Assembly (NCBI RefSeq): GCF_003704095.1
Contig: NW_020847593.1
Location: 434,001 to 498,000, forward strand
Reading direction: 5' to 3'
Length of the DNA stretch: 64,000 nt
DNA from: Pocillopora damicornis
Lineage: Eukaryota
Shown here: positions 30,501 through 33,500 of the stretch, one piece after another
Layout of the letters: each line of letters opens with the position of its first letter
How positions within the stretch are numbered: the stretch's first letter is position 1
Notes under the pieces: model-generated
Seen by the model: the letters and a program-made list of their open reading frames with translations, nothing else
Told to the model about the DNA's origin: nothing
Databases searched by the model: none
Program-made: the position numbers and the translations under genes

Positions 30501-33500
30501 TATCCAAACCCAACGCAGGTTGCTATCAAGTCCAAGTGTAAGATCGCGGTATTCACGCTTGAGTTTTTTCCGCTTATCTGCAAGGGCCTCTAGTTGCTCT
30601 GCACTATTGACTATAGCGATTTCGCTCTTCTGTTTGTGACACAGGTTCCGTGCAATCCGCCACGCCTTAGATGATTGGAAATAGAACATGAAACATGCTT
30701 TTCCTAGTTTGTACCAACCAGGTTCACATCCAGAAATAGAACGGCTTTCTGCAAAGAAAATATTTCATGGATTTTTTCTCCATTCAACTGGCACTCACTC
30801 TGGTTTGTAACTTGCCTGGTTTACGCACAATTCCCATCTTTCAACGAATGATCTTTTTTTTAATACTAAAATTTGGCTTTAAAATAAGTGAGAAAATTAG
30901 AAAATAATCATGTACATGACTTTCCATCAATTGAATAGGGACCTCAACCTTGTTGTCAATCTCTCTTTCTCTCTCGTTTTTCTATGGTGCGAAAAACAAA
31001 AATCGGGCGTGAAAAAATTGCTTCCTCAAAGTATGTAGCCTAAAGAAACATTTTTCAGGCTTCATTTAAACAGTCTTTTCCTCATCCTCACCTGATTGAA
31101 CCACATTGCAGGCATAAAAAAAGAAATTCGTCTCGCATTTGCAACCATCCATTAGACTAGGATCTTCAAGAGTGATCATAGGCCCAACTCTATCTCTGCT
31201 AATGAAAAAAATCTTACTGCAATTCAGTGACAAATCCTTGTGATTGAGGACAGCAACATCCAAGGGATAGTTATTATAGTTAAAAATATCTAGCTTTGTG
31301 GTAACGAAGCTGTGTCCCTTTGCATAAGGGTAGATGAAAAAAGTCTTCTCTGTCGGATATCCTTGGGGATGTTCGATACTGAATCGGAACTCGTCCGAGT
31401 ACCGATTGTCTTCAGAGGGTCTTGTCGATATTCTGAAATCTTTCCCCATGGTGGAAGACACGTAGAACGTTGCTTTACCTAAAATAATAAATTCAAATGG
31501 AATCATGGATCATGCTTTTTATGTCAAAGTCTGCCTCACAGCGATTCTTAGCGAAGTTTCAAACGATCAAACTAACTTAGCAAATTCCAGCAGTTACGTC
31601 AATAAACACAAAACTGAAAAAACCACATTAAGGTACTGCTCCATAGATTGAAAATGAAGTAAACACCGTTATCATGTGCCCAAATTATTTCCATATAATC
31701 GAAAGAAGATATTGATATTGCCGTACTTAATTGGTGACAATGTCCGTGTTGAAACGTGAAGTCGTCCAGGGCTGCGTCTCCACTACCGCTTCTCCCTCTA
31801 ATACCATCAATTATTATCTAAAAATGACAGAGAAGAAGACTTCCAAGCTATCATGAGATCTCACGTAAACGAGGTGAGAGACAACTTATTTTATACATCA
31901 AAGTTCTCCCGTCTGTTGAAAATCTTAGAAGTCCTATTTTTTTTTTCTGGAGAATGATATTGCAGCCAGCGTTTAATCTCCCTGAGTTTTGAACCTGTCA
32001 CTGAACCTTGATTATTAGATCCCAACGAAAATCGTATACTTGGTAAGACTGCTGTAATTAACAGCGCAATTAAAATGGCAGAAGTCATAGGAGAACTCTC
32101 TTTGTAGTGGAAACGATAAATCTATTCTGACTGTAGCCACCTTGGGCAGAGGTTATGATTCAAAAAGTGACGTCCCACCTGATAACTTGAAGTATCGTTT
32201 ATGCTAACTTGCCCTTGAATCCATTTGTTTCCTTGCTTCTTGGACCTCAGCCAAAGCGGTTGTAATCTGTCTGCAGCCTGTCTTCTTATGTACACAACAA
32301 CACATCCCATGGACGAGCCATACATGTGGTAGTAGAACATCATGCAATGTGGTCCTCTTAGCCACGGACTCGTGAGCCTTGCAGTGTCTCCCATCTTCCT
32401 CCGTCCCGATGTTTCAATATAAATGTAATAACCAGATCCTTTCGATAGAAAAACGAGTATTACAAGCACAAATTCTTCATTTAGAGTAGCAAATACTAGT
32501 ACAATCTAATTTTTCTGATTCAGTTGCTAAATCTTCATTCATTCGTTTTTGAGCATGCACGGTGCAAAGCAATTATGTTATGACCGCTTAGATCAAGTTT
32601 TATACCTTCCATCTCTGCTTAAAGTGATTTACCCCGCATGCGAAAATACCAGTCTTCAAAAGTACTACTTCGTTTTACCTGAAGTATGGTCCCTGCTAGG
32701 TCCAGTCTGAGGGCTTTTTGTCCGGCCTTTTTTTCTTCTCCATGCGAAGATAAAATTTAAATCTTTCCTCCAAAAGCACAAGTTACGATCGAAGTTACAA
32801 TTCCCTAAAAATAAAAGATGTGATAGCCGTTATCTTTAAAGTTGACAAATAAGAAATTTATAACAAAAGTTCGGAAACTGTGCATTTTATAACAGACCAT
32901 CAAGAAATATACGCGAGAGAATCATGAATGGTTCTGTAATACTTTGAACAGAAGCATGAGAAGAACCTTGTACGTTGGTGCTAAGTTCCCTCTCGTCATG
33001 ACATAGTCCATCAACTAAGTTGACGTCATAGACTGCTATATGACTTGTGTAGTTTTTGCCAACTGTTGCTTGCAGAACAATCTGTGATAAGAATTATCAT
33101 TGATATTATATCTTATTTATTTATTTATTTTGGGACAGTGCAGTCTAATCTAATTGCTTGAAAAGGTTATCAGTGGGCAAGGTGGACACAGGACTAGGAG
33201 CACTACTCCTTACTATTTTATACTACAGTGACAGATAAATCTATTCATATTTCAATTCTCGGGATCATAGAAAACGCCAGAGTTATATAAAGAAGATTAA
33301 ATATCATCTCATTGTTTTCTGCCTTTAGAATGTGTGTATACCTGACAATCGTCAGTATAACCGATATCGACGCTAGCCATTATCCGCTGACTTCCCTGAT
33401 CTCCTGACTTATTCCACATCAAGTAATCTCCTTGTCGCCCTCGAAGTTGAAGTAAGACATCCAGCCTTCCCACATCACGTCCGGACAAGCGATAAGAAAA

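Follow-up and report, generated by a model that had tools for sequence, protein, structure and literature searches.

What is the stretch of about 129 amino acids that two coral genes each encode on a single exon between a third MAM domain and a C-type lectin domain (CTLD), and what might it do there? The genes, here called B and C, lie in a window of 64,000 nucleotides of Pocillopora damicornis (NW_020847593.1, positions 434,001 to 498,000, forward strand), and the segment is called domain X. The interpretation put forward here, to which a probability of roughly 0.45 is attached, is that domain X is an undescribed stony-coral domain of compact all-beta form, likely serving as a protein-docking module ahead of the CTLD in a large recognition protein that is secreted or sits at the cell surface.

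The exon pair in genes B and C

Exon B (31478..31092, minus strand) has AG/GT ends and an open frame of 128 full codons, and both domain X exons are preceded by a 91-nt exon that ends a MAM domain and followed by an exon for a C-type lectin domain. A sequence-only reading of the window had described just this 387-nt, phase 1-1 arrangement, and coordinates, splice ends and flanking exons bear it out, with RNA in addition for gene B. The two peptides agree at 57 of the 129 positions aligned; the alignment scores 263, where the best of 1000 shuffles scores 4. All the shared peptide blocks quoted in that reading are present in both. The introns, said not to align, indeed score like shuffles (20 against 17.7±2.5 and 20 against 19.0±2.6), while exon DNA scores 62 versus 20 for each flanking intron pair. 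Synonymous sites between B and C are saturated.

Contigs of four RNA runs from four studies were placed over 29300-32600, and their cover is almost only on exons. The C-type lectin exon is joined to domain X (junction 30748/31092) in all four runs, one of them one base off, and the MAM exon is joined to it (junction 31478/31727) in two of the four. As one contig has a single mismatch across 384 nt of exon B, the transcript is that of gene B itself. The domain X exon is under purifying selection: between gene B and its nearest paralogue the crude ratio of nonsynonymous to synonymous change is 0.44, near that of neighbouring exons (0.25-0.35).

At 31473-31509 (minus) two gene models, P0089 (RefSeq) and P0002, begin with MIPF..., which is intron read in frame ahead of the exon, and so their N-termini are probably annotation artefacts.

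The family and its predicted fold

By sequence comparison domain X appears to constitute an undescribed family. Pfam has no family for the query and none common to more than 2 of 65 members, NCBIfam matched 0 of 6 members, PDB sequences gave no match below E 0.33 and the ESM Atlas no usable match. Literature searches returned no description of it, and passages of PMC10236652, one of the papers found, do not mention it. Three QxW sequence repeats are the mark of ricin-type beta-trefoil lectins; no QxW motif is conserved in the column table of domain X, hidden Markov models (HMMs) for these lectins (PF00652 and clan) gave no match, and a comparison of its thirds for a three-fold repeat gave scores that 9-23 of 30 column shuffles equal or exceed. 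The cysteine-rich domain of the mannose receptor family, also a ricin-type beta-trefoil, is of similar size, beta-rich and N-terminal to C-type lectin domains, but domain X differs in having no Pfam match, QxW repeats or internal repeat, and the trefoil is absent among the fold matches listed. The three-fold repeated DLN or D-x-G-S/T-G-x3-D motifs of MABP beta-prism and beta-tripod accessory domains of MACPF proteins (PMC10344926, PMC8624791) are absent from its conserved columns.

A first profile of 8 sequences, run against 1.84 billion representative proteins, found 22, of which 20 are real and 2 are bacterial repeat artefacts. With 27 sequences the profile matched 59 of 1056 candidates and exposed a second subfamily at about 17-27% identity; a quick tree splits the two with full support, and both are represented in this genome, which fits the ancient origin proposed for the paralogues. 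Domain X is present once in each of 181 of the 190 fetched proteins, most of them unnamed single-exon open reading frames. Species-named carriers among the 30 clusters looked up are Acropora palmata, A. digitifera, A. millepora, Stylophora pistillata and Desmophyllum pertusum, all Scleractinia, and the searches found no credible prokaryotic copy. The 65-row alignment conserves P20, H23, F30, Y46-F47-x-Y49, P71-x-D73, R94, I101-x-L103, C111-C112 and F120-x-A122-x-N124, with a C-terminal N-x-S/T sequon in 52 rows.

Coral mosaics of MAM, LDLa and C-type lectin domains have domain X at the same position, among them RefSeq XP_044177330.1 (A. millepora), XP_022809603.1 (S. pistillata), KAJ7371685.1 (D. 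pertusum) and XP_074619887.1, 'neuropilin-1-like'; their annotation is 'uncharacterised' or follows the MAM domain, with no Pfam domain in the X region. The family order is MAM xN - X - CTLD - [LamG - WSC x2] - CTLD - F5/8-like - PA14 - ... - LDLa - MAM, X occurring once per protein. The genome holds six full copies (four on contig C4228, one each on C2971 and C3362), and C4228 has four partial matches besides. All six full copies are followed by a CTLD exon and five are preceded by a MAM exon, the sixth being in a rearranged, partly masked stretch. In the five copies with both ends readable the domain is on a single symmetric phase 1-1 exon (387, 387, 387, 393 and 381 nt). That symmetry would suit the mobile module proposed from sequence, but no other architecture and no tandem copies were found, and mobility is not supported by this one architecture with one copy per protein; most database matches are single-exon frames without context, among which other settings may exist.

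Five models of the domain agree at a predicted confidence (pLDDT) of 80-88, and are compact and nearly all-beta. Structure searches with the model gave one full-length match, PDB 9UJ0 residues 352-484, far above other rows; the predicted domain superposes over its whole length on this C-terminal domain of the 'Aegerolysin-L pore'. 9UJ0 is by name Aeg-L of Alternaria alternata (Shi et al. 2025, as cited in the review PMC13341504). Identity is 9%, 9UJ0 is not among the matches listed in the PDB-sequence profile search, and the tail is best regarded as a borderline structural neighbour in what is predicted to be a rare fold. Beta-trefoil and beta-prism or tripod folds and PlyB chains are not among the structure-search matches listed (VIA rows included). 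Unlike the fungal tail, the coral domain lies inside a lectin mosaic that has no pore-forming domain, and it carries cysteines and sequons. The sequence-only reading thus holds in its unassignable, beta-rich and ancient parts.

What the domain may do

The host protein would be extracellular, to judge from a signal-like start, the sequons and the neighbouring domains. The docking role is proposed by analogy with C-terminal accessory domains of fungal aegerolysin-partner pore formers, and is ranked first because in pleurotolysin the C-terminal trefoil rests upon the dimer of PlyA (PMC4318580) and pore-former accessory domains are regarded as recognition domains (PMC8624791, PMC9505663, PMC10344926). 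The pleurotolysin B trefoil (PF18684, PlyB_C), an all-beta domain of such a pore former (PMC4318580), may be a functional analogue; unlike it, domain X has no HMM match (0 of 65 members at E<=10) and is not attached to a MACPF domain. A genome search with PlyB_C gave no match, its controls being silent as well. The spliced relatives scanned have domain X flanked by MAM and CTLD and showed no MACPF or other pore domain, and nothing suggests that the coral protein is a toxin; domain X would therefore offer the lectin array a ligand or keep one in place for it, and not aid pore formation. That it is a true homologue of the fungal docking tail, capturing proteins of aegerolysin or actinoporin fold as sensor or decoy, is very improbable, though PlyA has an actinoporin-like fold (PMC4318580) and CAEP, a lipid of cnidarian membranes, is an aegerolysin ligand (PMC9505663). 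The genome has at least 28 MACPF-domain matches (L025-L030), several clustered on C3341 and others on C2367 and elsewhere, one being close to MPEG1/perforin-2.

Next in rank, and unlikely, is a new carbohydrate-binding fold in which the adjacent conserved cysteines would be joined in a vicinal disulfide stacked against a sugar ring; such disulfides are able to contact sugar rings (PMC12102755). The Cys-Cys pair is in 61 of the 65 aligned rows, with many subfamily-I rows having these two cysteines alone; the polar residues H23 (85%), D73 (91%) and R94 (78%) are conserved, and the neighbours are CTLD, LamG, WSC, F5/8-like and PA14 domains. The idea is weakened because the pair is missing from gene B and from two close relatives (GCKC, YCKCK) that are nevertheless, like gene B, spliced and conserved, and in subfamily II, with four cysteines, the pair may bond elsewhere. 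Nor is there a three-fold repeat in the sequence. No lectin fold is among the matches listed in structure searches with the predicted model, where a pore former's tail is the one match, so that the fold lends no support to the lectin-like character suggested from sequence.

Doubtful too, and ranked after glycan binding, is a structural spacer or lid packed on the following CTLD and binding nothing outside its own chain. Its invariant position before the CTLD, never duplicated, would suit this, as would conservation mostly of hydrophobic and proline residues, the low identity between subfamilies and a substitution ratio slightly above that of the neighbours. However, domain X is kept in all full paralogues while the WSC and LamG exons vary, and a rare fold with conserved polar and Cys-Cys positions exceeds what a linker needs. 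Last, and highly improbable, is a misleading model or fold match hiding a diverged known fold such as a beta-trefoil or beta-prism: alignment diversity is low (Neff 3.8) and an earlier 8-sequence model (pLDDT 40) and the Atlas single-sequence model (0.31) failed, but the agreement of the five models and the single full-length match stand against it.

The mosaic genes around the domain

Gene B has the order MAM x3 - X - CTLD - LamG - CTLD - F5/8-like - PA14 - ... - MAM/LDLa - FA58C repeats - Thr-rich stretch, domain names outside Pfam rows being assigned by reading the sequence. The window gene products are 73-79% identical to S. pistillata models.

Table. Exons of genes B and C at and around domain X (window positions)
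Feature	Position	Strand	Basis
Gene B core exon, third MAM domain	32179..32440	minus	sequence and RNA contigs
Gene B exon closing third MAM domain, 91 nt, phase 0-1, spliced to domain X	31727..31817	minus	sequence and RNA contigs
Gene B exon for domain X, ~129-aa beta domain	31092..31478	minus	387 nt, phase 1-1; both junctions in RNA contigs; model
Gene B first C-type lectin exon, spliced directly to domain X	30320..30748	minus	RNA contigs; Pfam Lectin_C on relatives P0002/P0089
Gene B LamG/pentraxin-like exon	29408..30043	minus	sequence and RNA contigs
Gene B second C-type lectin exon (low end approximate)	28279..28700	minus	sequence
Gene C probable first coding exon, signal-peptide-like N-terminus	55722..55809	plus	inferred by eye
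Gene C exon closing third MAM domain, 91 nt	62350..62440	plus	sequence
Gene C exon for paralogous domain X, Cys-Cys pair present	62548..62934	plus	387 nt, AG/GT, phase 1-1; splice sites from sequence only
Gene C C-type lectin exon after domain X	63136..63567	plus	sequence

Gene B lacks about 1.67 kb found in its nearest paralogue, L023 (at window 29062/29063), both WSC exons being gone except for a remnant, and in RNA run X1 a loose end at 29408 continues into the beginning of the second CTLD exon, a sign that splicing bypasses the missing part in frame. The copies at C2971:33988-34371 and C3362:386886-387197 are distant members of this mosaic family that keep the order MAM-X-CTLD-...-PA14-LDLa-MAM with no LamG or WSC matches. 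At C4228:414610-414795 (L004/L024) the 5′ half of the X exon and the upstream MAM exons are deleted, and this copy is probably a pseudogene. In the rearranged, partly masked copies C4228:272987-276608 and 334008-334851 (L003, L006-L008, L018, L021) a short X-exon start adjoins a WSC exon and LDLa pieces on the opposite strand. Upstream of gene B, at 36800-40300 (minus), there are broken frames like those of a long terminal repeat retrotransposon (gag, reverse transcriptase and integrase-like by look). The stretches 3400-14500 (plus) and 15000-28200 (minus) are an inverted near-duplicate of the 3′ part of gene B with changed block order (F5/8-like, PA14, MAM, FA58C and Thr-rich pieces), which may be a rearranged paralogue or an effect of assembly.

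Among cnidarian lectin mosaics the host proteins are of an ordinary kind, and it is the domain family that is the new part, one missing from current Pfam, whose confidently modelled fold has a single neighbour in the PDB. As a defined 14-kDa construct domain X is suited to crystallisation and screening. Should the link to the tail of a fungal pore former be real, fungal toxins and animal surface receptors would unexpectedly have a rare fold in common. The setting is a coral family of recognition proteins that has expanded and may plausibly act in immunity, mucus or symbiosis.
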